From positions 70,595-134,594 of the forward strand of contig CAYVDD010000001.1 of assembly GCA_964450805.1 (NCBI GenBank): a stretch of 64,000 bases of DNA. The letters run 5' to 3'. The position numbers were made by a program, and so were the translations under genes. Positions 17,778-62,629 of the stretch are shown here, one piece after another. Source of the stretch: an uncultured Candidatus Saccharibacteria bacterium. GTDB lineage: Bacteria > Patescibacteriota > Minisyncoccia > Minisyncoccales > JANBVM01. The stretch's first letter is position 1, and every line of letters begins with the position of its first letter. The notes beneath the pieces were generated by a model. That model was given only the letters and a program-made list of their open reading frames with translations. It was not told where the DNA came from and searched no databases.

Positions 17778-19079
17778 ATGTCTAAAAAGATATTTGATAT
17801 TATACCTCCAGAGAATATAGAGAAAGATAAAAAGCCAGTTGCTAAAACCTTTAAGAAAAAGATTTCTGAACAAGAAGCTGTTGAACAAATAAAGGAAAAG
17901 GCTGATATCGTAGCTGTTAGTGAGAAGATTGAAAAGAAAGGTTTTAAGGCTGGACGGGTTATTATTCCTATTTTTATAGCTTTGTTTATTTTTGTTGCCT
18001 TTCAAATTTCAAAGGCTGAAATTGAAATATGGCCTAAAACAGAATTAGTTAATCTTGAAACAGAATTAACAATTGATGTTAATGCTGATAAAATTGATTT
18101 ATCTTATAAGACTATTCCTGCCCAGGTTTTTGAAAGTCAAAAAGTTCTTTATGAGGAATTCCAGTCAACAGGTGAAACTTTGAAAAAAGCAGAAGGAGTA
18201 ATAAGACTTTATAATGAATATTCAACCAAATCTGAAACATGGCTTAAAGGAACCAGGTTTGTATCATCAGAAGGCAATCTTTTTAAGTCAAAAGACAAGA
18301 TTATTGTACCAGGGGCTGAGCTTAAAGATGGAAAACTTATTGCCAGATACGTTGATGTTCCTGTGATTGCTGCTGAACCAGGTGAAGAATATAATATTGA
18401 ACCAAGTTATTTTTCAATATATGTTTTCAGGGGAACGCCAAGATATACTAAATTCTACGGAGAATCTTTAAATCCAATGACAGGTGGTGGAGAGTATCCT
18501 CAGGTGACAGCTAAAGACTTAGAGTCAGCAGAAGAGATTTTAGTTCAAAAAACTGAAAGTGCTTCTGAACTTGCTCTGGAAAATAAAATCCCAGATGATT
18601 TAATTTTTTTAGAAGATATTTTAAAAACAGAAATTTTGGAAAAATTTTCTTTAACTAAAGAGGGAGATGAAGTAAAAGATTTTGATTTTAAAGTAAAAGC
18701 CAAATCAAAAACTCTTTTGTTTAAAGAAAAAGACATTAAAAATTATATTAAACAGCTCATTCTTTCCCAGGATTCCAGCAAAAAGTCATTTTACGAAGAA
18801 AGTTTAAAAATCAACTATACTCTTCAAACCATTGATTTTGATTCAGGCAAAGCACTTATTTCTTTAAGCGTTTCAGTTGAGGTTTATTCTGATATTAACT
18901 TTGACCTTCTTAAAAGAGAGCTAAGAGGTAAATCCTTGGCTGGAATAGCTGTGTTTTTAGAGAGCCAATCAGAAATTGAAAAAGCAGAAGTTGAACTCTG
19001 GCCTTTTTGGGTTAAAAGTGCGCCTAAAAATATTGAAAAAATTGATATTAATTACAGCTTCATAAACAGTTCAATCTAA
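17778..19079 (+). CDS. membrane-anchored hypothetical protein (433 aa)
   Basis: K-rich cytoplasmic N-terminus, a single TM segment (VIIPIFIALFIFVAFQI), and a large extracytoplasmic domain. Confidence 0.7.
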   Translation: MSKKIFDIIPPENIEKDKKPVAKTFKKKISEQEAVEQIKEKADIVAVSEKIEKKGFKAGRVIIPIFIALFIFVAFQISKAEIEIWPKTELVNLETELTIDVNADKIDLSYKTIPAQVFESQKVLYEEFQSTGETLKKAEGVIRLYNEYSTKSETWLKGTRFVSSEGNLFKSKDKIIVPGAELKDGKLIARYVDVPVIAAEPGEEYNIEPSYFSIYVFRGTPRYTKFYGESLNPMTGGGEYPQVTAKDLESAEEILVQKTESASELALENKIPDDLIFLEDILKTEILEKFSLTKEGDEVKDFDFKVKAKSKTLLFKEKDIKNYIKQLILSQDSSKKSFYEESLKINYTLQTIDFDSGKALISLSVSVEVYSDINFDLLKRELRGKSLAGIAVFLESQSEIEKAEVELWPFWVKSAPKNIEKIDINYSFINSSI

Positions 19080-48465: not shown

Positions 48466-49911
48466 ATGAAGAATAATAAAAATTGGCCAATCTATTCAAA
48501 AGATAACTTGATTTTAGGTAATCCTGAAAAAGAAGTTGCTATTGTAACTTTATGGACACCAACAAAAAAAATTACTGAAAAGCTAGATAAAAACCTTTTT
48601 TCTGTAGCTGGCCAGCTCTATTCTAAAAGCGGCATTAATTACATTATCAGGAATATTTTAGCTAATCCATTGATACATTATTTGGTTGTTTGCGGTCAGG
48701 ATCTTTCAGGTTCAGGCCAAGCTCTGATTAATTTCTTTAAAGAAGGCATTGATGAGAATTATAATATTATAGGCAGTGATTTTGCTTTAATTCATAAAGA
48801 AATACCAAGTCAGGCTTTAGAGCTTGTTCGTAAAAATGTTCAAATAAAGAATTTAATAGGGGTTAGAGAAATAGAGAGAATAAATAAAGAGTTAAAAGCT
48901 TGTTCTCTAGTTGGCAAACCATTTGCTAAACCTCAGACATTTGCCAGCCATAAAGAAAAAAAATCCCTGTCTTTTCCTGCTGAACAATCTGTTTTTAAAG
49001 TAAGGGAAAAATATATTGCTCCTGCTTGGTTTAGAATTTTGAAACTGATTCTAAAATTTGGAGCAGTTAATAAAAGCTGGTATGGAAATGAAGTCAGAGA
49101 GATTTTTAATATTGCAGCTGTGGTTAGTAATGAAAATCCTCTTAAACCACGAATGTTTCCTTTTTTACAGGTTAGCAGGGAGGATATTAAAAAATATCAG
49201 TCAAACATTATGAAAGGAGATAAGGGAGATGAAATATATAGTTATGGAGAAAGGCTTTGGAATTACAGAGGGATAAATCAAGTAGAAGATGTAATAATAC
49301 CTTATTTAAAGAAATATCCTAATGACAGGGCTTCATTAGCTGTAATATTTGATATGACTCATGACCACAAGGCTTCCCGGTCTCCCTGCATGTGTCTGGT
49401 TCAGGCTACGACTTTAAATAATAAACTGAATTTAACTGCTTATTTTAGAAGTCATGCTATATTTTCAGGATGGGTTTTAAATGCATTTGGTCTTCGTCAG
49501 CTTCAGCAATATATTGCTCAGAAGCTGTCAAAAAAAACAGGCCTTTTAACAATTTTTTCTAATTGCGCTCATATTTATGACAATGAATTGCCAGCAGCTA
49601 AAAAAATCATTGAGAAATACAGTTCTGAAAAACTAGATTATTCTCCTGATCCTCGAGGTTACTTCGTTATTACTATTGAAGGAAAAGAAATAATTCTTAA
49701 ACATTATTCTCCTGAAAATCAATTTCTGCAGGAATTTCGCCAGAATGGTTTGATAGAGAAGGCTGCTATTAAAATGTATAATAAATTAATTTCAGCTGAA
49801 GCTATTTCTGAAGTTTCTCATGCTTTTGATTTGGGTGCTGAACTCCAGAAAGCTGAAATTGCTGTAAAAAATAATTTAAAATATATTCAGGACAAAGAAT
49901 TATTATTATAA
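48466..49911 (+). CDS. ThyA-family thymidylate synthase-like enzyme with ~170-aa N-terminal extra domain
   Basis: The C-terminal half has YGERLWNYRG, SPCMCLVQ (catalytic PC), YFRSHAIFSGWVLN (aligns to E. coli YQRSCDVFLGLPFN) and CAHIYDNE. Confidence 0.75.
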   Translation: MKNNKNWPIYSKDNLILGNPEKEVAIVTLWTPTKKITEKLDKNLFSVAGQLYSKSGINYIIRNILANPLIHYLVVCGQDLSGSGQALINFFKEGIDENYNIIGSDFALIHKEIPSQALELVRKNVQIKNLIGVREIERINKELKACSLVGKPFAKPQTFASHKEKKSLSFPAEQSVFKVREKYIAPAWFRILKLILKFGAVNKSWYGNEVREIFNIAAVVSNENPLKPRMFPFLQVSREDIKKYQSNIMKGDKGDEIYSYGERLWNYRGINQVEDVIIPYLKKYPNDRASLAVIFDMTHDHKASRSPCMCLVQATTLNNKLNLTAYFRSHAIFSGWVLNAFGLRQLQQYIAQKLSKKTGLLTIFSNCAHIYDNELPAAKKIIEKYSSEKLDYSPDPRGYFVITIEGKEIILKHYSPENQFLQEFRQNGLIEKAAIKMYNKLISAEAISEVSHAFDLGAELQKAEIAVKNNLKYIQDKELLL

Positions 49912-51928: not shown

Positions 51929-53395
51929 ATGGAATCCAAACTTCAAGCAGTAATAGGCCTGGAAATACATGTGGAATTAAGCACTAATTCTAAAATGTTT
52001 TGTTCATGTAAGAATGATGCTGATGAGAAACATCCGAATGTTAATATTTGTCCAACATGTACTGCCCAACCAGGGAGTCTTCCTGTAATAAATAAAGAAG
52101 CTGTCAGGTATGTTATAAAAACAGGATTAGCTTTGCATTCTGAAATTGCTGAAGTTTCAAAATTTGACAGGAAAAACTATTTTTATCCTGATCTACCTAA
52201 AGGATATCAGATTTCCCAGTATGATATGCCAATTGCTCAAAAAGGAGAGTTAAAGTTCAGAGTTAAGAGTTTGGGTCCTAAAACCGTAAGAATAACCCGT
52301 GTTCATCTTGAGGAGGATACTGGCAGTTCAGTCCATCTTAAAGAGGAAAACTACAGCTTGGTTAATTTTAACAGAGCAGGTATTCCCTTAATGGAATTAG
52401 TCACAGAGCCTGATATGAATTCAGCGTTAGAAGCAAGGAAATTCAGCCAGGAGCTTCATTTGCTTTTGCGCTATTTAAATGTTTCTGAGGCTAATATGGA
52501 AAAGGGTCAGTTAAGAATTGAAGCAAATATTTCAGTTAAGCCCAAGAATTCAAAGCAGCTGGGAACAAAAGTAGAAATTAAAAACCTTAATTCTTTCAGA
52601 GTTGTAGAAAAAGCCATTGATTATGAAATAAAAAGACAAACAAAATTATTAAAGTCAGGTAAAAAAATTGTTCAGGAAACAAGAGGCTGGGATGAAAAAA
52701 AAGGAGTGACAGTCTCTCAGCGTGAAAAAGAACAAGCTCATGATTACCGTTATTTCCCAGAGCCTGATTTACTGCCCTTAGTGTTTGATAAAGACGAGAT
52801 TAATAAAATTAGGGCTGAAATTCCTGAACTTCCTTTCAATAAAAAAGCAAGATTATCTGAAGAGTATAAAATAGATAAAGATAGTGTTGAATTCTTTGTT
52901 TATAATAAAGATTTAGGGGAATATTTTGAAAAGGTAGTTTCTGAATTTGAACCTAATCTTGCTAAAGACAAGCTTAATAGTTTGATAAATCTGGCAGTGA
53001 ATTATATTATCACTAATCTTCAAGCTTTATTAAAAGAAAAAGGTGTTGAGGGTGAGGATTTTTTAATTACTCCAGAGAATTTTGCTGAATTCATTACTTT
53101 AATTGAGAATAAAACAATACTAAGCAAGGTTGCAAAAACAGTGCTTTTGGAAATGTTTCAAACGGGCGCTGATCCTTCAAATATTATTGAAGAAAAGGGT
53201 TTAAACTTAATGAAAGATAAGGGTGAGATTACAAGTATTGTAAAAGATATAATTTCAAAAAATCAAAGAGCAGTATCAGATTTTAAAAAAGGAAAACAAA
53301 ATGCAATCCAGTTTTTAATAGGTCAGGTAATGGCAAAAACAAAAGGAAGAGTAGATCCTAAAACCGCAGAAAAAATCTTAAAAGATAACCTATAA
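51929..53395 (+). CDS. gatB: Asp/Glu-tRNA amidotransferase subunit B
   Basis: VIGLEIHVEL....MFCSC, DRKNYFYPDLPKGYQISQ and NRAGIPLMELVTEPD. Confidence 0.95.
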   Translation: MESKLQAVIGLEIHVELSTNSKMFCSCKNDADEKHPNVNICPTCTAQPGSLPVINKEAVRYVIKTGLALHSEIAEVSKFDRKNYFYPDLPKGYQISQYDMPIAQKGELKFRVKSLGPKTVRITRVHLEEDTGSSVHLKEENYSLVNFNRAGIPLMELVTEPDMNSALEARKFSQELHLLLRYLNVSEANMEKGQLRIEANISVKPKNSKQLGTKVEIKNLNSFRVVEKAIDYEIKRQTKLLKSGKKIVQETRGWDEKKGVTVSQREKEQAHDYRYFPEPDLLPLVFDKDEINKIRAEIPELPFNKKARLSEEYKIDKDSVEFFVYNKDLGEYFEKVVSEFEPNLAKDKLNSLINLAVNYIITNLQALLKEKGVEGEDFLITPENFAEFITLIENKTILSKVAKTVLLEMFQTGADPSNIIEEKGLNLMKDKGEITSIVKDIISKNQRAVSDFKKGKQNAIQFLIGQVMAKTKGRVDPKTAEKILKDNL

Positions 53396-55549
53396 GAATG
53401 CTTTTATGAGTTTTTCTGCTTGAGAATAGTTTTTAATCCAGTTAATTGTTTTGTCTTTTTTAAACCAGGTCATCTGGCGTTTAGTAAATTGTATTGTATG
53501 TTTTTTTATATCCTTTTTAATCTCTTCTTTGTTTTTATTTTCAAGCCATTCAGAATAGCCAATGGTTTGAAGCAGGGGGGAAGTTCCATATTTTTTTGTT
53601 AATTTCCTGACTTCTTTTTCAAGTCCAAGTTCAAACATCTTGTCAGTTCTTTTTGAAATTCTTTTTTCTAATTCTTTTTTCGGTAATTTTATTCCAATTT
53701 GCAGAATATCAAAAAGAGAAGCTTGTTTTTTTCTTTGAATCCAGAATGGTTTTTTTGTAATTCTACAAACCTCAATTGCCCGCACTAATCTTCTTTTATT
53801 ATTTTTGTCAATTAATTCAGCGCCTTTGGAGTCTAATTTTTTGTAAATTTTAAATAATTCTTTAGTATTTTTTTTCTCTAATTGCTTCCTTAACTTTTTA
53901 TTTGGTTTTACTTTTGGAAAATCAACATTATCAACAATTGATTTTATGTATAAACCTGTTCCTCCAACTAAAAATGGTAATTTCCCTTTTTTATAAATTT
54001 TTTCTATTGTTTTAATTGCTTTTTCTTTGTAGAGCGCCACATTAAAATCTTTATTTAGAGCAAGAAAATCAATTAAATGATGGGGAACTGCTTTCATTTC
54101 TTTTTTGGTTGGTTTAGCAGTTCCAATAGCCATTTCTTTATAAATTTGCCTTGAGTCAGCTGAAACAATTTCTCCATTAAATTTTTTCGCCAATTTAATA
54201 GCTAAATTTGTTTTGCCAGTTGCAGTGGGTCCTAAAATTACAATCAGTTTTGGTTTACTGAGAATTCCTTCAAGCCCCCAAGATAAATCTTTTGTAATTT
54301 TTACTTTTATTATTTTACCTGTTAAACTCTTATTCTCGCTCTGTATTTTTACTGTTTTATAGGTTCTGGTTTTTCCAAACAAGAACCTTTTTTCATGTTT
54401 ATTTATCAATACTTTAACTTCTTTTCCAACATATTTTTTATTGTTTTCTAAAGCAGTTTTTTCAAGAATTTTTGTTAAAACAAGCCATCTGATATGCTTT
54501 TCTTTTTTGGAAATGTTGTCTTTTAATCCTAATGCCTTTGTGTGAGGCCTGGGAGAATATTTGGCAATATATGCCATATCAAATTTCATTTCTTTGAATA
54601 ATTTAACTGTGTTCTGGAACTGGCTTTTAGTTTCAGATGGAAAACCAACAATAACATCAGTAGACAAATTAATGTCAGGGATTTTTTTTCTTATTTTTTT
54701 AACTAAATCTTTATAGTTTTTTACTGTATAACTGCGGTTCATCTCTTTTAAAATTTTATTATCTCCGGATTGAACTGGAAGATTGAGATATTCTGTTACT
54801 TTTTTAAGTTTAGCCATTGTATTAATTAATTCGTTTGAAAAATCTTTGGGATTTGGAGATGTGAATCTTATCCAGAAATCAGCATTGATATTATTAATCA
54901 TTTCTAAAAGCTTTGAAAAGGTTATTTTAGAATTGGCAGGGGATTTATAGTCATTAACATTCTGGCCTAAAAGCCAGATCTCTTTAATATTATTTTTAAC
55001 TGCTTTTTTTACTTCATTTATTATTTCTTTGTGATCTCTGCAGATTAAAGGACCGCGAGTAAAAGGAACTATACAATAAGCACAGGAGTTATTGCAACCA
55101 GATGATATTGGAATTAAAGCTGAAAAGTTACTAATTCGTTTTGGTTGTATTTTAAAATATTGGTTATCTTGTCTTAGCAAGGGTGGCCATAATTCTGATA
55201 AAAATCCAGCTTCAAAATACTTTGGCCATTGAGGTAAGCTTTTAATATTTAAGACCAAATCAAATATTTTAATAAATTTTTTATGGTCTTTTTTTGAAAT
55301 ACAGCCAGTTAAAATTGTTTTTAACTGCTTGTTTTTTTTCTTTAGTTTTTGAAGCTTTAGACTAAGTCCATGGATTCTGTTTACTGCTGATTGTCTTACT
55401 GAACACATGTTAACCACTATCAAATCAGCTTTATTCTTGTTTAAAGCTTGTTCATAGCCTTGGCTTTGTAGTAAATGAGCAATTCGTTCTGAATCAGATA
55501 TGTTTAGCTGACAGCCGTAAGTTAAGATAAAGTATTTTTTAGTAATCAT
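53390..55549 (-). CDS. fusion protein: MiaB (tRNA-i6A37 methylthiotransferase) + MiaA (tRNA dimethylallyltransferase)
   Basis: aa 1-~433: TYGCQLNISDSE, radical-SAM CNNSCAYC, and a TRAM domain. aa ~434-719: ILGPTATGKT...SADSRQIYKEMAIGTAKPT...VPHHLID...GGTGLY. One uninterrupted ORF of 719 aa. Confidence 0.88.
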   Translation of the reverse strand: MITKKYFILTYGCQLNISDSERIAHLLQSQGYEQALNKNKADLIVVNMCSVRQSAVNRIHGLSLKLQKLKKKNKQLKTILTGCISKKDHKKFIKIFDLVLNIKSLPQWPKYFEAGFLSELWPPLLRQDNQYFKIQPKRISNFSALIPISSGCNNSCAYCIVPFTRGPLICRDHKEIINEVKKAVKNNIKEIWLLGQNVNDYKSPANSKITFSKLLEMINNINADFWIRFTSPNPKDFSNELINTMAKLKKVTEYLNLPVQSGDNKILKEMNRSYTVKNYKDLVKKIRKKIPDINLSTDVIVGFPSETKSQFQNTVKLFKEMKFDMAYIAKYSPRPHTKALGLKDNISKKEKHIRWLVLTKILEKTALENNKKYVGKEVKVLINKHEKRFLFGKTRTYKTVKIQSENKSLTGKIIKVKITKDLSWGLEGILSKPKLIVILGPTATGKTNLAIKLAKKFNGEIVSADSRQIYKEMAIGTAKPTKKEMKAVPHHLIDFLALNKDFNVALYKEKAIKTIEKIYKKGKLPFLVGGTGLYIKSIVDNVDFPKVKPNKKLRKQLEKKNTKELFKIYKKLDSKGAELIDKNNKRRLVRAIEVCRITKKPFWIQRKKQASLFDILQIGIKLPKKELEKRISKRTDKMFELGLEKEVRKLTKKYGTSPLLQTIGYSEWLENKNKEEIKKDIKKHTIQFTKRQMTWFKKDKTINWIKNYSQAEKLIKAFL

Positions 55550-57466: not shown

Positions 57467-59254
57467 CTAAATATATTTTTCAATTTCTATTTTTGCTTTT
57501 TTAATGAATGCTGTCAATTTAATTTTCCCCAAATCTTTTCCTTTTTTTCTGATTCTGACAGACCTTGATTTCAACTCCTCATCTCCAACAACCAATAAGT
57601 AGGGGATTTTCTGAATTTCACCATTCCTTATCTTTTTTGAAACAGTTTCATTTTCATTTTTGAGAACATATCTGAAATTATTCTCATTCAGTTTTTCAGC
57701 AATTTGTTTGGCATACTTGTTGTGCTTGCCTGAGACTGGAATTACCCACATTTGTTCAGGCGCAAGCCATAAAGGAAATAATCCTTTGTAGTGTTCAATT
57801 AAAAGGCCAATGAATCTTTCATATGATCCAAAGAGAGCTCTGTGCAGCATGTAAGGTTCTTCTTTTTCTCCTTTTTTATTTATGAAGCTCATGTTAAATC
57901 TTTTTGGCAGATTAAAATCAAACTGCAGAGTAGAGCACTGCCATTCTCTTCCAATAGAATCTTCAACTTTAAAATCAAGCTTTGGTCCGTAAAAAGCTGC
58001 CTCACCTTGTTCTCTGATGCACTTGAGTTTTTTCTCTTTTACAATTTCTTCCAGAACTTTTTGGCTGAAATTCCATCCTTTGTCATCGCCAATATATTTT
58101 TCTTTATTCTTTGGATCCCTTAGGGATAAATAAATGTTGTATTTTTTAAATCCAAAAGATTTGAATATGTAGACAATGAAATCAATAACCCTTTTTAATT
58201 CTGCTTTAACCTGGTCTTTGGTGCAGATAATATGTGCATCATCAATAGTAAATCCTCTTACCCTTGTTAGTCCAAACAATTCTCCTGATTTTTCATATCT
58301 GTAAACAGTTCCTGATTCAGCCCATTTAAGAGGAAGTTCTTTGTAGCTTCTGATTTTTGAATTGTATACCAGAACATGAAAAGGGCAGTTCATTGGCTTT
58401 AAAATGTATTCTTCTTTGATTTTGGGTTTTGCTCCTTTTTTTGCTTCAGCCAAGCTTTGAGTTACTTCCAAGGGGGGATACATGCTGTCTGCGTAGAAAT
58501 CCCAGTGTCCTGATTTTTCCCATAGTTTTTTGTTCCCAATGTGGGGAGCTCTTAACAACTGGTATCCTTTTTTTAAATGCTCATTGTTCCAGAAATCTTC
58601 AATAATTTTAAACATTAAAGCTCCTTTAGGCTGCCAGATAGGAAGGCCTAACCCTGCCAAAGGGTCAATAATGAATAATTCCATGTCTTTTCCAATTTTC
58701 CTGTGGTCTCTTTTTTTGGCTTCCTCTGAGGATTTAAGGTGTTCTTGTAATTCTTTTTCAGTTTTAAAGGCAGTTCCATATATTCTGGTCAGCATTTTAT
58801 TCTTTTCATTACCGCGCCAGTAAGCTCCAGCTACTGACAAGAGCTTGAAAGCTTTTATTTCCTTGGTTGATTTAACATGAGGGCCACTGCACAAATCAAC
58901 AAACTCATCTCCTGTTCTATAAATCACTGCTTTTTCTTTTCTTTGTTTTATTTCATCCAGCCATTCTTGTTTATAGGGATTATTTGGAAAGAGTTTTCTG
59001 GCCTGTGATACTTTTAAAACCTCTTTTTTAAAAGGCAAATCTTTTTTAATAATTTTCTGCATTTCTTTTTCAATCTTCGGAAAATCCTTCTCACTTATTG
59101 TTTTACTGTAATCAAAATCAAAATAAAAACCATCTTCAGTGGCAGGCCCCATTGCCATTTTAAGACCAGGGTAAAGTTTTATCATTGCCTGGGTTAGAAT
59201 ATGTTCAGCGCTGTGACGCATTGCTTTTAAATTGTTGTTTTCTTTTTTAGCCAT
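57467..59254 (-). CDS. thrS: threonyl-tRNA synthetase lacking the N-terminal TGS domain
   Basis: Starts at the editing-domain motif MRHSAEHIL. Class II core FGLTRVRGFTIDDAHI and an anticodon-binding domain follow. 595 aa. Confidence 0.94.
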   Translation of the reverse strand: MAKKENNNLKAMRHSAEHILTQAMIKLYPGLKMAMGPATEDGFYFDFDYSKTISEKDFPKIEKEMQKIIKKDLPFKKEVLKVSQARKLFPNNPYKQEWLDEIKQRKEKAVIYRTGDEFVDLCSGPHVKSTKEIKAFKLLSVAGAYWRGNEKNKMLTRIYGTAFKTEKELQEHLKSSEEAKKRDHRKIGKDMELFIIDPLAGLGLPIWQPKGALMFKIIEDFWNNEHLKKGYQLLRAPHIGNKKLWEKSGHWDFYADSMYPPLEVTQSLAEAKKGAKPKIKEEYILKPMNCPFHVLVYNSKIRSYKELPLKWAESGTVYRYEKSGELFGLTRVRGFTIDDAHIICTKDQVKAELKRVIDFIVYIFKSFGFKKYNIYLSLRDPKNKEKYIGDDKGWNFSQKVLEEIVKEKKLKCIREQGEAAFYGPKLDFKVEDSIGREWQCSTLQFDFNLPKRFNMSFINKKGEKEEPYMLHRALFGSYERFIGLLIEHYKGLFPLWLAPEQMWVIPVSGKHNKYAKQIAEKLNENNFRYVLKNENETVSKKIRNGEIQKIPYLLVVGDEELKSRSVRIRKKGKDLGKIKLTAFIKKAKIEIEKYI

Positions 59255-59304
59255 ATTATTTTTTACCTTAATATTTTATTATATTTTTTTTTAACATATT
59301 AAAC

Positions 59305-59366
59305 AAAAAACCTCTTTTTCTAGAGGCTAATTCTTAAGCAATTGAAAGGCTTTAAGATTTAGCCTC
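59305..59366 (-). promoter_or_regulatory. antiterminator/terminator switch of a putative thrS attenuator
   Basis: GAGGCTAAaTCTTAA (59366-59352) pairs with TTAAGAaTTAGCCTC (59337-59323). This competes with the terminator CCTCT-agaaaa-AGAGG + T6 (59326-59305). Confidence 0.6.
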
Positions 59367-59414
59367 CTAAAAAGAAGTTGTAGTAGAAGTTGTTGTAGAA
59401 TTATTAAAATTCAT
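59367..59414 (-). CDS. putative thrS leader peptide MNFNNSTTTSTTTSF
   Basis: ATG AAT TTT AAT AAT TCT ACA ACA ACT TCT ACT ACA ACT TCT TTT TAG. Six of 15 codons are Thr, and the stop codon abuts the antiterminator 5' arm. Confidence 0.55.
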   Translation of the reverse strand: MNFNNSTTTSTTTSF

Positions 59415-59423
59415 TGTATTTTT

Positions 59424-59452
59424 ACTTTAAGATTTTTTAAAAACCTTGTCAA
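59424..59452 (-). promoter_or_regulatory. sigma70-type promoter for the thrS leader
   Basis: On the minus strand: TTGACA (59452-59447), 17 nt, TAAAGT (59429-59424). The ATG lies 9 nt downstream. Confidence 0.5.
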
Positions 59453-59455
59453 TGA

Positions 59456-62400
59456 TTATGCTTCAAGGATTTCTTCAATATCCTCGCAGATTAATTTTGG
59501 AGTAGCACTTCTGTTGCTAATTTTTCCAGAGACAAAGACTATTTTGTTTTCTTTAAATAATGTTGGTTTTTTTTCAATCATTGATGGAAATACTACTACT
59601 TCAATTCTGTCAGATAAATCTTCCAGAGTCATAAAAAGCATTGGTTTGCCAGTTTTAGTAATAATTTTCTTAATTTTGGAAATTATGCCTCCTATTTTTA
59701 CATTCCTGCGCGACAGGGAAGCATCAAGATTTGCTATCTGAACAGATTTTTTTTCTAAAATAGCCTTATAGTCTTCTAATGGATGAGAACTGACAAAGAG
59801 ACCTAAAAGCTCTTTTTCCCAGCTTAATTTTTGGCTTTTTTTTGCTGGTTCTACATTTTCAAAACGAATTTTAACTTCTGCCGCTGTTTGTGTTCCGTCA
59901 AAAAGCCCAATCTGGCCATTTGACCTTATTTTTTGATTTTCTTTGTTCCAGCTTAAAAGTTTTTCTAAATTGTGGAGAAGCTGATTTCTTTCTGTAAACT
60001 TATCAAAAACCCCTGCCTTAATAAGACTTTCCAGAGACTTTTTATTCAAATCTTTTGAGTTTATTCTTGAAATAAAATCATTAATTGACTGAAAAGGCCC
60101 ATTATTTTTTCTCTCATCAACAATTGTATTAACAATACCTTCGCCTACATTTTTTATTGCAAATAATCCAAAGCGCATTTGTTTTTTGTGGGGAATTACG
60201 CTGAAGTTTCTCCAGCTTTCATTAATATCAGGAGGCAATACTTCAATTTCCATTTTCCTGCACTCATCAATCAAAAACCCAATCCTTTCTACGTCTGCTT
60301 TTTCTGAAGTTAAAAGAGCTGACATAAATTCAACTGGATAGTGCGTTTTTAAATATGCTGTTTGATAAGCGATCATAGAATAGGCACAACTATGACTTTT
60401 ATTAAATCCGTAACGGGCAAAAGGCAGAATCCATTCCCAGATTTTTCTGGCAATATTGTCTTCTATTCCATTGTTTTTCATTCCTTCAATAAGTTTTTGT
60501 TTTTGCTCCAGTAATAGTTTTTTAATTTTTTTACCAACAGCTTTTCTTAAAACATCTGCCTCTGGCAGGCTGAAACCAGCTAACTTTTGAGCAATCAGCA
60601 TTAGACTTTCTTGAAAAACTAATAAACCATAGGTTTCCTTTAAAATTTCTTTTAATTTAGGGTGTAAATATTCAATCTCACTTTTCCCTTTTTTCCTGGC
60701 AATATATTCAGGGATTAAAGAAATAGGACCAGGCCTGTAAAGTGCAAGCATAGTAATAATGTCTTCAAACTGATCAGGTTTTAATTGCTTTAAATATCTT
60801 TGAAAACCTGCTGATTCTAATTGAAACACTCCGACTGTTTTTCCTTTTTGCAGTAATTTATAAGTTTGCCTGTCATTTAAAGGAAGATTTTCAATATCAA
60901 TCTTTTTTTTGTGTATTGCATAAATTCTAGCCAGTGTATCTTCAATGATTGTTAGGTTCTTTAATCCCAAAAAGTCCATTTTTAATAATCCCAAATCTTC
61001 AACAGAATGCATTTCATATTGAGTAACAATATTATTATCATTTTGAGTAGGGTGCTGCAAAGGAACAACATTATCCAGTGGCTTGGCTGAAATTACTATT
61101 CCACAAGCATGGGTAGAAGCATGGCGCGCTACTCCTTCTAATTTTTTAGCTAAATTAATCAGTTTCTCAGCTTTAGAATCTGTTTCATAAAGTTGGCGGA
61201 ATTCAGGGATTTTTGCCAGAGTTTCGTCCAGATTATGTCCAAAAGGAATCATTTTTGCAATCTGGTCGCAGTAGCTGTAAGTATAGTTAAGAGCTCTGCC
61301 AACGTCTCTTATAACAGCGCGTGCTGCCATTGTTCCAAAAGTAATTATTTGAGCAACTCTATCTTTGCCGTATTTTTCAGATACATATTCAATAACTTCA
61401 TCTCTTCTTCTGTCAGTAAAGTCCAGATCAATATCAGGCAGTTCGTTTCTTCCAACATTTAAAAAACGTTCAAAAAGAAGGTTATATTTTAATGGATCAA
61501 TACTGGTAATATTTAAGACATAAGACACTAAAGAGCCTGCTACGCTTCCTCTGCCAGGACCCACCACAATTCTTTTTTCTTTTGCCCAGTTCACAAAATC
61601 CTGGACAATTAAAAAATATGATGAGAAACCCATTTTTTCTATCATCTCCAGTTCATAATTCAATCTATCCACAATCTCTTTTTTAACCAAAGGACCATAT
61701 TTCTTTTTTAGCCCTTGTTTGCAAAGTTTTTTTAGATACTGATGAGGGGTTTCATTGTTTGGTGTTTGGAATTTAGGAAGTTTAATTTCACCAAATTTAA
61801 ATTCAAAATTGCACTGCTCAGCTATTTTTAAAGTATTTTCAATGGCTTCTGGAATATCTTTAAACTCTTCTATCATTTGCTCTGGTTTTGTTAAAGAAAA
61901 GTCATCAGCTTTTATTGTTAAGCGTTCAGGATCATTAGGGTCAGCGCCAGTATTGATAAGCATTAGAGTGTCCTGAGCATCAGCATCCTCTGGTTTTAAA
62001 TAATGTGAATCATTTGTTGCTACTAATGGAATCTTTAATTCTTTTGAAAAAGAAATTAGAGCTTCGTTTACTTTTTTTTGTTCTTCAATATTTGGATGAT
62101 TCTGAACTTCTAAATAAAAATTATTACTGCCAAATATCTTTTTGTATTTTAAGGCTGTTTGTTTTGCTTCTTTAATTTTATTTTGTAAAATCAATTGAGG
62201 AATTTTTCCATTTAAACATGCTGATAGTCCAATTAGTCCTTCTGAGTGTTTTGCCAACAGCTCTTCATCAATTCTTGGCTTGTAATAAAACCCTTGTAAA
62301 TGAGCCTTTGTCAGTAATTTAACCAGATTTTTATATCCTATTTCATTTTTAACTAAAAGAACTAAGTGATAGATTTTGTTATCAATATGTGCTCTTTTCT

Positions 62401-62629
62401 GATGCATGTCTTCATAGGCAATGTATGCTTCACAACCAATAATTGGTTTTATTTCTTTTTTCTTTGCTTTTTTAAAAAATTCAACTGCACCATAAAGCAC
62501 GCCATGGTCAGTTAAAGCAATAGAATCCATGCCTAATTTTTTTGCATAATCCAAAAGCTCATCTATTTTTGGTAGACCATCTAAAAGAGAGTAGTGGCTA
62601 TGGACGTGTAGATGAACAAATTTTGACAT
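59456..62629 (-). CDS. dnaE: DNA polymerase III alpha subunit
   Basis: PHP domain FVHLHVHSHYSLLDG, the polymerase core, and an OB fold; 1057 aa. Confidence 0.95.
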   Translation of the reverse strand: MSKFVHLHVHSHYSLLDGLPKIDELLDYAKKLGMDSIALTDHGVLYGAVEFFKKAKKKEIKPIIGCEAYIAYEDMHQKRAHIDNKIYHLVLLVKNEIGYKNLVKLLTKAHLQGFYYKPRIDEELLAKHSEGLIGLSACLNGKIPQLILQNKIKEAKQTALKYKKIFGSNNFYLEVQNHPNIEEQKKVNEALISFSKELKIPLVATNDSHYLKPEDADAQDTLMLINTGADPNDPERLTIKADDFSLTKPEQMIEEFKDIPEAIENTLKIAEQCNFEFKFGEIKLPKFQTPNNETPHQYLKKLCKQGLKKKYGPLVKKEIVDRLNYELEMIEKMGFSSYFLIVQDFVNWAKEKRIVVGPGRGSVAGSLVSYVLNITSIDPLKYNLLFERFLNVGRNELPDIDLDFTDRRRDEVIEYVSEKYGKDRVAQIITFGTMAARAVIRDVGRALNYTYSYCDQIAKMIPFGHNLDETLAKIPEFRQLYETDSKAEKLINLAKKLEGVARHASTHACGIVISAKPLDNVVPLQHPTQNDNNIVTQYEMHSVEDLGLLKMDFLGLKNLTIIEDTLARIYAIHKKKIDIENLPLNDRQTYKLLQKGKTVGVFQLESAGFQRYLKQLKPDQFEDIITMLALYRPGPISLIPEYIARKKGKSEIEYLHPKLKEILKETYGLLVFQESLMLIAQKLAGFSLPEADVLRKAVGKKIKKLLLEQKQKLIEGMKNNGIEDNIARKIWEWILPFARYGFNKSHSCAYSMIAYQTAYLKTHYPVEFMSALLTSEKADVERIGFLIDECRKMEIEVLPPDINESWRNFSVIPHKKQMRFGLFAIKNVGEGIVNTIVDERKNNGPFQSINDFISRINSKDLNKKSLESLIKAGVFDKFTERNQLLHNLEKLLSWNKENQKIRSNGQIGLFDGTQTAAEVKIRFENVEPAKKSQKLSWEKELLGLFVSSHPLEDYKAILEKKSVQIANLDASLSRRNVKIGGIISKIKKIITKTGKPMLFMTLEDLSDRIEVVVFPSMIEKKPTLFKENKIVFVSGKISNRSATPKLICEDIEEILEA

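Follow-up and report, generated by a model that had tools for sequence, protein, structure and literature searches.

We describe a putative attenuator located between dnaE and thrS, the gene of threonyl-tRNA synthetase (ThrRS), in a 64,000-nt stretch of contig CAYVDD010000001.1 from an uncultured bacterium belonging to the Candidate Phyla Radiation (CPR); this whole stretch is hereafter called the window. The complete element is 110 nt long and contains a short open reading frame (ORF) with a run of threonine (Thr) codons, followed by alternative hairpins that include an intrinsic terminator. Based on sequence comparisons and folding models, we propose with a probability of roughly 70% that it would act as a ribosome-mediated (leader-peptide) transcription attenuator coupling thrS expression to the supply of charged tRNA-Thr. 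We document its anatomy, its conservation, its pairing potential and the thermodynamic effect of masking part of it as a translating ribosome would. The genomes of CPR bacteria, or Patescibacteria, are tiny and encode few regulators, and import of amino acids, instead of their synthesis, is generally reported for these organisms; to our knowledge, almost nothing is known of their gene regulation.

An initial annotation of this DNA had proposed attenuation by two competing hairpins. Comparative and thermodynamic evidence supports the attenuator interpretation with three refinements, namely a nested hairpin in which segments 1 and 4 pair around the helix formed by segments 2 and 3 (1:4 and 2:3 pairings, see below), a near-leaderless ORF without a Shine-Dalgarno (SD) sequence, and a second candidate promoter, P2. 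The 1:4 pairing and P2 are absent from that annotation.

Anatomy of the dnaE-thrS spacer

Our reading of positions 59150-59600 located all the parts reported initially on the minus strand, with the promoter TTGACA-17-TAAAGT, the 15-codon leader ORF, the helix arms and the terminator each at the bases claimed for them. The features are the following (MFE, minimum free energy):

59447..59452, minus strand: -35 box TTGACA of promoter P1, from sequence reading and pattern scan; invariant in 8/8 distinct spacers
59424..59429, minus strand: -10 box TAAAGT of P1, 17 nt past the -35 box; TAAATT or TAAACT in relatives
59367..59414, minus strand: leader ORF, here called 'thrL', ATG plus 14 codons and TAG, encoding MNFNNSTTTSTTTSF (ATG at 59414, TAG at 59369-59367); read from the sequence, with the same layout in 7 other spacers
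59376..59396, minus strand: putative regulatory Thr codons ACA ACA ACT (TCT) ACT ACA ACT, in two runs (59396-59388 and 59384-59376)
59369..59379, minus strand: segment 1, AACUUCUUUUU, spanning the 3' end of the final Thr codon, the codons for Ser and Phe and the first two bases of the stop codon; from the MFE fold and the RNAalifold consensus
59352..59366, minus strand: segment 2, GAGGCUAAAUCUUAA (DNA GAGGCTAAATCTTAA), 5' arm of the putative antiterminator; begins directly 3' of the stop codon
59323..59337, minus strand: segment 3, UUAAGAAUUAGCCUC (DNA TTAAGAATTAGCCTC), 3' arm of the putative antiterminator; its final 4 nt, CCUC, are part of the terminator 5' arm
59305..59326, minus strand: predicted intrinsic terminator CCUCU, loop AGAAAA, AGAGG and U6, read from the sequence and called terminator-like by a pattern scan (CCTCT at 59326-59322, AGAGG, or segment 4, at 59315-59311, T6 at 59310-59305)
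59278..59306, minus strand: candidate promoter P2, TTGTTT (59306-59301), 17 nt, TATAAT (59283-59278), read from the sequences
59458-59456, minus strand: dnaE stop codon, from sequence reading
59456..62629, minus strand: dnaE (DNA polymerase III alpha), ORF with Pfam domains PHP, DNA_pol3_alpha, finger, HHH_6 and OB
57467..59254, minus strand: thrS, the presumed regulated gene, ORF with Pfam domains tRNA_SAD, tRNA-synt_2b and HGTP_anticodon; ATG at 59254

P1 matches the consensus at 10 of 12 positions in the promoter pattern scan. The antiterminator helix comprises 15 bp and starts at the stop codon of the leader ORF, and the tetranucleotide CCUC (CCTC in the DNA) belongs, as had been claimed, both to its 3' arm and to the 5' arm of the terminator. 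In the window, 46 nt separate the end of the hairpins from the thrS ATG, and no ORF of at least 20 residues overlaps the leader element on either strand. The next gene downstream of thrS codes for a DUF5667/Kazal protein according to Pfam.

Conservation of the leader among relatives

Relatives were collected by a ThrRS protein search combined with the DNA of the corresponding contigs, and eight distinct dnaE-thrS spacers were compared, those of the window and of loci L161, L015, L162, L167, L168, L169 and L170 (ThrRS 63-83% identical to that of the window). The protein search returned relatives with ThrRS identities of 83, 79, 72, 65, 64 and 63%. One close relative was found by a ThrRS scan of a genome collection, L015 from Candidatus Nealsonbacteria (CP179889.1, 79% identity), and a scan of a metagenome collection gave no ThrRS match above 60% identity. 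The upstream gene is dnaE wherever Pfam domains are on record (L165, L168 and L169); in the remaining relatives, the aligned 3' end suggests that it is dnaE as well.

All eight spacers share the same layout. TTGACA is invariant and is followed by a 16-17-nt spacer and TAAAnT, with an ATG 6-9 nt after the -10 box. In frame with this ATG, five or six Thr codons precede the residues (I)SF in an ORF of 15-20 codons, whose stop codon lies 0-2 nt before segment 2 or inside it, and a CCUCU/AGAGG terminator with T5-6 is found downstream. The mini-ORF with Thr codons and the alternative pairing described upstream of thrS in the initial annotation are therefore both kept in the relatives. The leader peptides are the following:

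Window: MNFNNSTTTSTTTSF
L167: MNFSNFITTTTTTSF
L170: MNFHNSITTTTTTSF
L161: MLRISKQFNTTTTTSF
L015: MLRNLKQLNTTTTTSFLKG
L169: MLSINRKLNTTTTTSFRQG
L162: MLNIIRKLNTTTTTISFEGG
L168: MGKIKKNLTITTTTTTSF

The N-terminal halves of these peptides and the lengths of the ORFs vary between relatives, the Thr run being constant. This run is made of five or six consecutive codons in the relatives; in the window, 6 of the 15 codons are Thr codons. The codons of the run differ mainly at third positions (ACA, ACT or ACC, but never ACG, which is rare in the genome with 30 of 832 Thr codons), as expected if codon identity is selected, rather than the peptide or an RNA seed. The TCT TTT sequence that follows is invariant at the nucleotide level despite the existence of synonymous codons. 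Synonymous variation in the Thr run next to a fixed TCT TTT is the pattern expected if Thr is read as codons and Ser-Phe is constrained as RNA.

The mean pairwise identity of the leaders is 0.70 over a 164-column alignment, compared with 0.52 at the four-fold degenerate sites of thrS in the same genome pairs, and the spacer is therefore under purifying selection. Thr represents 4.3% of the residues in the proteins of the window. Seven-codon stretches with at least five Thr codons occur only twice across the six frames of the 64 kb, and one of them is this leader, directly upstream of thrS.

In the window, the leader ORF contains two near-identical 12-nt halves (ACAACAACTTCT / ACTACAACTTCT, 11/12 identical), which had been described initially as a tandem unit that might vary in copy number without keeping the reading frame. 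Their near-identity stands, but a slippage-prone, frame-breaking repeat was rejected: the nearest relatives have leaders of constant length, and neither a loss of frame nor a change in copy number is seen across the eight spacers. The two leaders closest to that of the window, from L167 and L170, have the same length and harbour ITTTTTT at the place of the repeat. The apparent repeat arose by substitutions instead of a change in copy number.

The conservation pattern also bears on whether the spacer could hold an independent small unit beside thrS, in the form of a Thr-rich micropeptide or of a small RNA of ~110 nt acting in trans via a CU-rich single strand. Promoter, ORF and terminator make such a unit complete, P2 could serve thrS separately, and terminated attenuator RNAs act in trans in other bacteria, as does rnTrpL (PMC6614838). 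We nevertheless regard this explanation as unlikely. The peptide is conserved only in the Thr run and SF, with the C-terminus extended by 3-4 variable residues in three members, and the third-position variation of the ACN codons would disrupt the seed of a small RNA. The match between a run of Thr codons and the gene of the Thr-tRNA synthetase would be left unexplained, the neighbours are dnaE, thrS and the gene for the DUF5667 protein, with no modification or transport genes adjacent, and expression of thrS in L167 needs read-through (see below). Besides, a role of the terminated RNA in trans would be compatible with a role in cis. A precursor of a ribosomally synthesised and post-translationally modified peptide, or of graspetide type, was rejected, as there are no modifying enzymes nearby and the peptide is not conserved.

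A covariance model built from the eight sequences (R1) was run on the window and on the first 172 of 173 fetched loci, and its only matches were the training sequences and their antisense hairpins; no additional copy was detected.

Several observations were made on the genomic context of the leaders. In two complete Nealsonbacteria genomes (CP179889.1 and CP179890.1; L015:1950-3450 vs L165:450-1950), a block of ~1.5 kb, which extends from the dnaE 3' end through the entire leader into the first ~450 nt of thrS, is 99-100% identical. Its flanks are ~80% identical or unalignable, and the two ThrRS proteins are 79% and 64% identical to that of the window; the block represents either a recent recombination event or an assembly chimera. 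The ThrRS of the window is closest to that of L161 (83%), but its leader is closest to those of L170 (85%) and L167 (82%), whose ThrRS are ~65% identical. This conflict between leader and ThrRS similarities (59301-59452 vs 57467-59254 of the window; L161, L167 and L170) suggests recombination breakpoints in or near thrS in the clade. In L168, an imperfect 20-bp hairpin (CCCAGTAGAGAAATTTCGAC ... GTCGAAATTCTTCCACTGGG, L168:1416-1500) that was not seen in the other members is present between the terminator and thrS, and the dnaE gene of the same contig harbours an intein with a LAGLIDADG domain.

RNA folding and structural support

The 163-nt leader has an MFE of -34.7 kcal/mol, compared with -19.7 +/- 3.4 kcal/mol for dinucleotide shuffles (z = -4.5), and 0 of 200 shuffles were as stable. 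Its MFE structure consists of one long hairpin, the upper part of which is the 2:3 helix initially called 'antiterminator'. In the lower stem, segment 1 (AACUUCUUUUU, 59379-59369) pairs with AAAAAGAGGUU (59319-59309), which corresponds to the terminator 3' arm and the first two U residues; thus, the Thr-Ser-Phe codons (ACCUCUUUU) pair with the terminator 3' arm. The base of the long hairpin abuts the U-tract, and the prediction for untranslated RNA is therefore termination instead of read-through. This modifies the initial view of two competing hairpins: their mutual exclusion is clear in six of the eight spacers and weak in L161 and L168, and the most stable fold is a single nested hairpin.

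The same nested 1:4 + 2:3 hairpin was obtained by RNAalifold from the alignment only. In this consensus of eight sequences, nine 1:4 pairs are paired in 72/72 cells, and the only two changes in segment 1 are both C to U and retain a G-U pair with segment 4; the codon before TCT TTT goes from ACC to ACT in the window and from ACC to ATC in L162. For the nested structure as a whole, 88% of the cells are paired, compared with 36-62% when the partners are slid by 1-3 columns. Double-sided changes are found at four pairs, a value reached by 2 of 500 column shuffles. A clean compensatory step from A-U to G-C can be followed in helix 2:3, with CUAA/UUAG in the window, CUAA/CUAG in L170 (A-C mismatch) and CUAG/CUAG in the rest. 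The helix of L168 differs in sequence (GGUUAGCU/AGCUAACC) and is found at the same place. As for the terminator, its five stem pairs are kept in 40/40 cells of the eight sequences, one C to U change being retained as a G-U pair; it offers no covariation because the stem is essentially invariant.

No stable 1:2 helix that could serve as a pause or protector hairpin was found in the MFE or consensus folds, the possible 1:2 pairing being a weak CYUC/GRGG of 4-5 bp only. Such a hairpin belongs to the layout of trp type and is not a defining part of the mechanism.

The plus strand also yields a hairpin score at 59311-59379, with both the covariance model and the terminator scan. What scores there is a near-palindromic stem seen in mirror image; because dnaE and thrS are both on the minus strand, no plus-strand role is suggested.

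Predicted effect of a translating ribosome

Each leader was folded between its AUG and the last base of the terminator stem, and every base as far as an edge set 7, 10 or 13 nt beyond a chosen A-site codon was forced to be single-stranded. The readout, obtained with a constrained partition function, was the fraction of molecules in which the terminator 3' arm is wholly free; it describes equilibrium and depends on the footprint. In six of the eight sequences, this fraction is ~0 without a ribosome and at early codons, reaches 0.35-1.0 across an interval of three codons, with a peak of 0.75-1.00 in each of the six, and has fallen back to ~0 once the A site is on the stop codon or on the final one or two sense codons, which are Ser and/or Phe according to the footprint. 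With the 10- and 13-nt edges, the three-codon interval is located inside the Thr run, and with the 7-nt edge it takes in the final two codons of that run and the one that follows. The calculated energies of the three states for the leader of the window are the following:

Nested hairpin, no ribosome: -29.8 kcal/mol
Helix 2:3 alone, stalled ribosome: -15 to -20 kcal/mol
Short terminator, ribosome at the stop codon: -8.0 kcal/mol

The proposed mechanism would operate as follows. From P1, just after dnaE, transcription would start at or within ~3 nt of the leader AUG, and the leader ORF would be translated without an SD sequence, like many genes of this genome. In the absence of a ribosome, helix 2:3 would fold and segment 1 (ACYUCUUUU) would pair with segment 4 (AAAAGAGG), generating a long hairpin at the U-tract and causing termination. 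A ribosome that reaches the stop codon would cover segment 2, and segments 3 and 4 would then form the CCUCU/AGAGG terminator, with the same outcome. In contrast, a ribosome stalled on the Thr run by scarcity of Thr-tRNA would cover segment 1 and leave segment 2 free. Helix 2:3 would in that case hold the CCUC of the terminator 5' arm, segment 4 would be left unpartnered and RNA polymerase would enter thrS. Transcripts of dnaE would also run into the element, and the same terminator would end them. The logic of the initial annotation, in which stalling leads to antitermination and arrival at the stop codon to termination, is supported by the ribosome-masked folding in six of the eight spacers; what it requires is the refinement that the untranslated RNA is predicted to terminate by default.

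Promoters and translation initiation

Promoter-like sites are not enriched in this 32%-GC DNA, with 24 found compared with 29.9 expected from shuffled sequence, and the P1 call therefore rests on conservation, not on a single match. The leader ATG is 9 nt past the -10 box; the mRNA is therefore expected to be leaderless or to have a 5' untranslated region of 1-3 nt. No SD sequence precedes the leader ORF, and SD-like motifs were found for only 8 of the 70 long ORFs of the window. Real genes with a -35/-10 pair and a start codon 6-9 nt past the -10 box include dnaE (TTGACC-17-TAAAAT-9-ATG) and the genes that start at 17778, 43430 and 48466. These features suggest that leaderless or SD-independent initiation is widespread in this genome of 32% GC. 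Gene starts with a close -10 box in the window are found at 17778, 34605, 43430, 48466, 62629 (minus strand) and 62711.

The TATAAT of P2 is present at the same offset in six of the eight spacers (the window and five others) and absent in L167 and L168. P2 ends 23 nt before the thrS ATG, and its TTGTTT overlaps the U-tract; it was not listed by the promoter scan because its -35 box has 3/6 matches only. This candidate is probably a weaker promoter ensuring basal thrS expression in most members. In L167, a deletion places the terminator 25 nt from the thrS ATG, without promoter-like sequence between them, and therefore all thrS transcription must pass the terminator. The absence of a bypass in L167 speaks for read-through as something normal and needed, not accidental.

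Because the MFE structure is a single long hairpin ending at the U-tract, the main rival to be tested is a plain dnaE terminator, with thrS expressed from its own promoter P2 and with the Thr-rich mini-ORF and P1 being fortuitous in an AT-rich spacer. The consensus fold has the same shape, TTGTTT-17-TATAAT follows the hairpin in 6/8 spacers, and the lack of enrichment of promoter-like matches is in keeping with a chance P1. However, a perfect TTGACA with TAAAnT between the dnaE stop codon and the terminator is kept in 8/8 spacers. The start codon, the reading frame and the Thr run are likewise kept in all eight, the Thr codons varying synonymously and the N-termini being different. A plain terminator would account neither for a leader more conserved than the four-fold degenerate sites of thrS nor for the occurrence of one of the very rare Thr-rich codon stretches of the window at this place, and L167 and L168 have no P2, the L167 terminator being in addition 25 nt from the thrS ATG. 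We thus consider a plain terminator to be distinctly improbable.

T-boxes and other thrS leaders

An Rfam cmscan of 59100-59600 at E <= 10 gave neither a T-box (RF00230) nor a Thr_leader (RF00506) match, but only chance hits to microRNAs, small RNAs and unrelated families. At gathering score, the only Rfam matches in the whole window are three tRNAs. There is no UGGNACC-type motif in the leader either, in agreement with the initial statement that no T-box motif is seen here.

The situation differs in more distant relatives. The thrS leader of L001 (Falkowbacteria) matches RF00230 with E = 1.8e-9, below the gathering score. In L003, L005, L006, L082 and L090, specifier (..CUACCAACC..) and GGUGGAACC motifs represent motif-level evidence only for T-boxes. 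The nearest outgroups, L171 and L172 (62% ThrRS identity), share a structured leader with the succession GCCUAACCACC ... GUGCCCAGAAAU ... GAGUGGAACCA ... UUUUUGGGC (L171:1155-1500 and L172:1058-1500). It includes a UGGAACC-like motif and a terminator and looks T-box-like by eye, but gave no Rfam T-box hit at E <= 0.1; it may represent a divergent T-box class. We claim a T-box for L001 only, because L171 and L172 have no Rfam hit and the evidence for the others is at the level of motifs. L002 and L004 have no leader, nor does L173, whose spacer is 32 nt long. None of the loci at <=62% ThrRS identity (L171, L172, L173, L002 and L004) harbours the element described here.

Among 147 thrS upstream regions, Thr-rich mini-ORFs were found only in L015 and in an unrelated candidate, L156. 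The latter is a metagenome contig whose ThrRS is 48% identical to that of the window (L156:1601-1720). Its mini-ORF MNSKIKNLLTTTTARVFAVFM is SD-led and precedes CCTCGCGAAAGCGGGG + T6, and in masked folding Thr codons 3-4 are the only positions at which the terminator is freed; a 68-residue ORF follows, and then thrS with a promoter-like site of its own. L156 may thus carry an independent Thr leader.

The presence of a T-box in at least one more distant relative, and of T-box motifs in others, raises the question of whether the RNA might bind tRNA-Thr or ThrRS directly, as a degenerate T-box-like specifier array or an operator of the E. coli type, without any need for translation of the ORF. 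The ACN repeats are complementary to tRNA-Thr anticodons, T-boxes occupy the same position in those relatives, and autoregulation of ThrRS via an mRNA operator is established in E. coli (mentioned in PMC2965389). Direct binding is nonetheless highly improbable in our opinion. The element has no T-box or other family match at E <= 10 and no UGGNACC-type bulge motif, and by inspection its hairpin loops are variable, without a conserved NGU anticodon-like triplet. The hairpins are at least 46 nt from the thrS start in the window and cannot occlude the ribosome-binding site, and the conserved ATG, frame and stop position would have no role.

In the window, the other aminoacyl-tRNA synthetase genes alaS and pheST have no leader ORFs, alaS being located directly after the previous gene and pheS after a plain terminator, and no other mini-ORF of interest with an amino-acid run was found in the intergenic regions. 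Two unusual ORFs of the window are worth reporting. A 719-residue ORF (53390-55549, minus strand) combines UPF0004, Radical_SAM and TRAM domains (MiaB-type) with a MiaA-type IPP transferase domain, which suggests that two consecutive enzymes of tRNA A37 modification have been fused. A 481-residue ORF (48466-49911, plus strand) is an unusual fusion of MtrA-like, thymidylate-synthase-like and PterinBD-DUF4346 domains.

Weighing the attenuator model

A number of points weigh against ribosome-mediated attenuation. The default fold, a long hairpin followed by a U-tract after dnaE, is like that of a plain terminator, and there is no clear 1:2 pause hairpin to synchronise the ribosome and the polymerase. 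P2, where present (6/8), would bypass the switch and lower its leverage. The predicted antitermination interval is narrow, with two or three codons, and varies with the footprint that is assumed. The overlap of helix 2:3 with the terminator 5' arm is limited to 1-3 nt in L161 and L168, where a shortened stem of 3-5 bp is still possible and mutual exclusion is therefore weak. The covariation appears to be real but is thin, because the sequences are few and related: it comes from eight related sequences, with four double-sided changes and an invariant terminator. Because thrS served to find the relatives, the linkage of the element to this gene is conditioned on the search; in addition, the family is narrow. 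Finally, we infer from the DNA where transcription starts, that the ORF is translated, that termination occurs in vivo and that the element responds to Thr-tRNA.

Comparison with known attenuators

The known controls of thrS are otherwise the T-box in Firmicutes and the translational operator in E. coli. An operator of the latter type would involve a hairpin mimicking the anticodon arm next to the ribosome-binding site, which is not found here. The thrS T-box leaders of Firmicutes and of L001 have in common with the element the same gene, a signal given by the charging of tRNA-Thr, and terminator read-through as the output. T-boxes sense uncharged tRNA directly via RNA-tRNA pairing, and their leaders span ~200 nt or more, with conserved motifs; here, in contrast, the predicted sensor is the translating ribosome, and T-box motifs are absent.

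Among attenuators of biosynthetic operons, the thrL leader of E. coli (RF00506) similarly uses a run of Thr codons as a sensor, and an intrinsic terminator and a helix competing with it come after this run. The target of thrL is Thr biosynthesis (thrABC) instead of thrS, and Ile codons are present in it as well; the lineage described here is assumed to lack amino-acid biosynthesis. Unlike thrL, the region described here has no RF00506 match at E <= 10.

The classical attenuator of an aminoacyl-tRNA synthetase gene is that of E. coli pheST (PMC1262725). As in our element, a leader ORF with cognate codons and alternative antiterminator and terminator hairpins precede the synthetase gene, and low levels of charged tRNA cause stalling and read-through. 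The amino acid, the gene and the phylum are different, and there is no sequence relationship. The pheST leader is SD-led and has the classical 1:2/2:3/3:4 layout, whereas the element here is leaderless or nearly so and its segment 1 pairs with segment 4.

In Streptomyces, attenuators have been predicted before leuS and trpS (PMC1262725), and an RNA-seq-based re-annotation of S. lividans lists leaderless leaders before leuS, trpS and alaS, as well as a 'thrL' before thrS (PMC8079986). The peptide of this thrL, MKRVRPFLETTPGFVPAR, contains only two Thr residues, and its authors found no clear rho-independent terminator (PMC8079986). It resembles the element described here in being a proposed leaderless leader peptide before thrS; the latter differs by its 5-6 Thr codons, canonical terminator, comparative support, AT-rich DNA and unrelated phylum.

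Leaderless poly-Cys short ORFs of mycobacteria are reported to act as Cys-responsive attenuators (bioRxiv 10.1101/834739). They too are leaderless short ORFs with a run of codons for a single amino acid, located as first cistrons and sensing supply; their targets belong to Cys metabolism, the phylum is different, and they may lack an intrinsic terminator.

Finally, predicted His leader peptides replace T-boxes at Bacillus hisS paralogues (Naville and Gautheret 2010, PMC2965389). Both there and here, T-box and leader peptide alternate at the same synthetase gene family in related organisms, with a different amino acid and phylum. The presence of a T-box in more distant Patescibacteria and of a leader peptide here matches this known exchange between the two devices at synthetase genes (PMC2965389).

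The element would work like these systems. It is not homologous to any curated family, and it differs from the known systems by its lineage, its leaderless start and a 1:4 pairing instead of a 1:2 protector. In the literature, we found no report of leader-peptide attenuation in CPR bacteria, nor of leader-peptide attenuation with a clear Thr run on thrS. The mechanism is a textbook one, and what is new for it is thrS as a target and this lineage.

Significance for CPR biology

On balance, we lean towards a scenario in which a clade of ultra-small CPR bacteria (Nealsonbacteria-like, judging by the names of the closest relatives) would have swapped the T-box that controls thrS in other Patescibacteria for an independently evolved, leaderless, SD-free and ribosome-sensing attenuator, kept off by default by a nested 1:4-around-2:3 hairpin instead of a 1:2 protector. 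It would represent a further example of T-box/leader-peptide exchange at an aminoacyl-tRNA synthetase gene. If the proposal is true, this would be the first leader-peptide attenuator described in CPR bacteria and the first on thrS with clear comparative support.

On the practical side, the 15-20-codon ORF and its terminator, which are missed by gene finders, could enter the annotations of these genomes, and the compact 110-nt design, with its nested 'off by default' hairpin, could be reused in synthetic circuits. The finding will not surprise specialists of attenuation; its interest lies in being a rare case of readable regulation in CPR bacteria. A conserved leader of Thr codons represents a regulatory mechanism that can be read from sequence, and it implies both coupling and leaderless initiation in uncultured organisms. 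If confirmed, it would provide direct evidence that these bacteria rely on coupled transcription-translation for amino-acid sensing.

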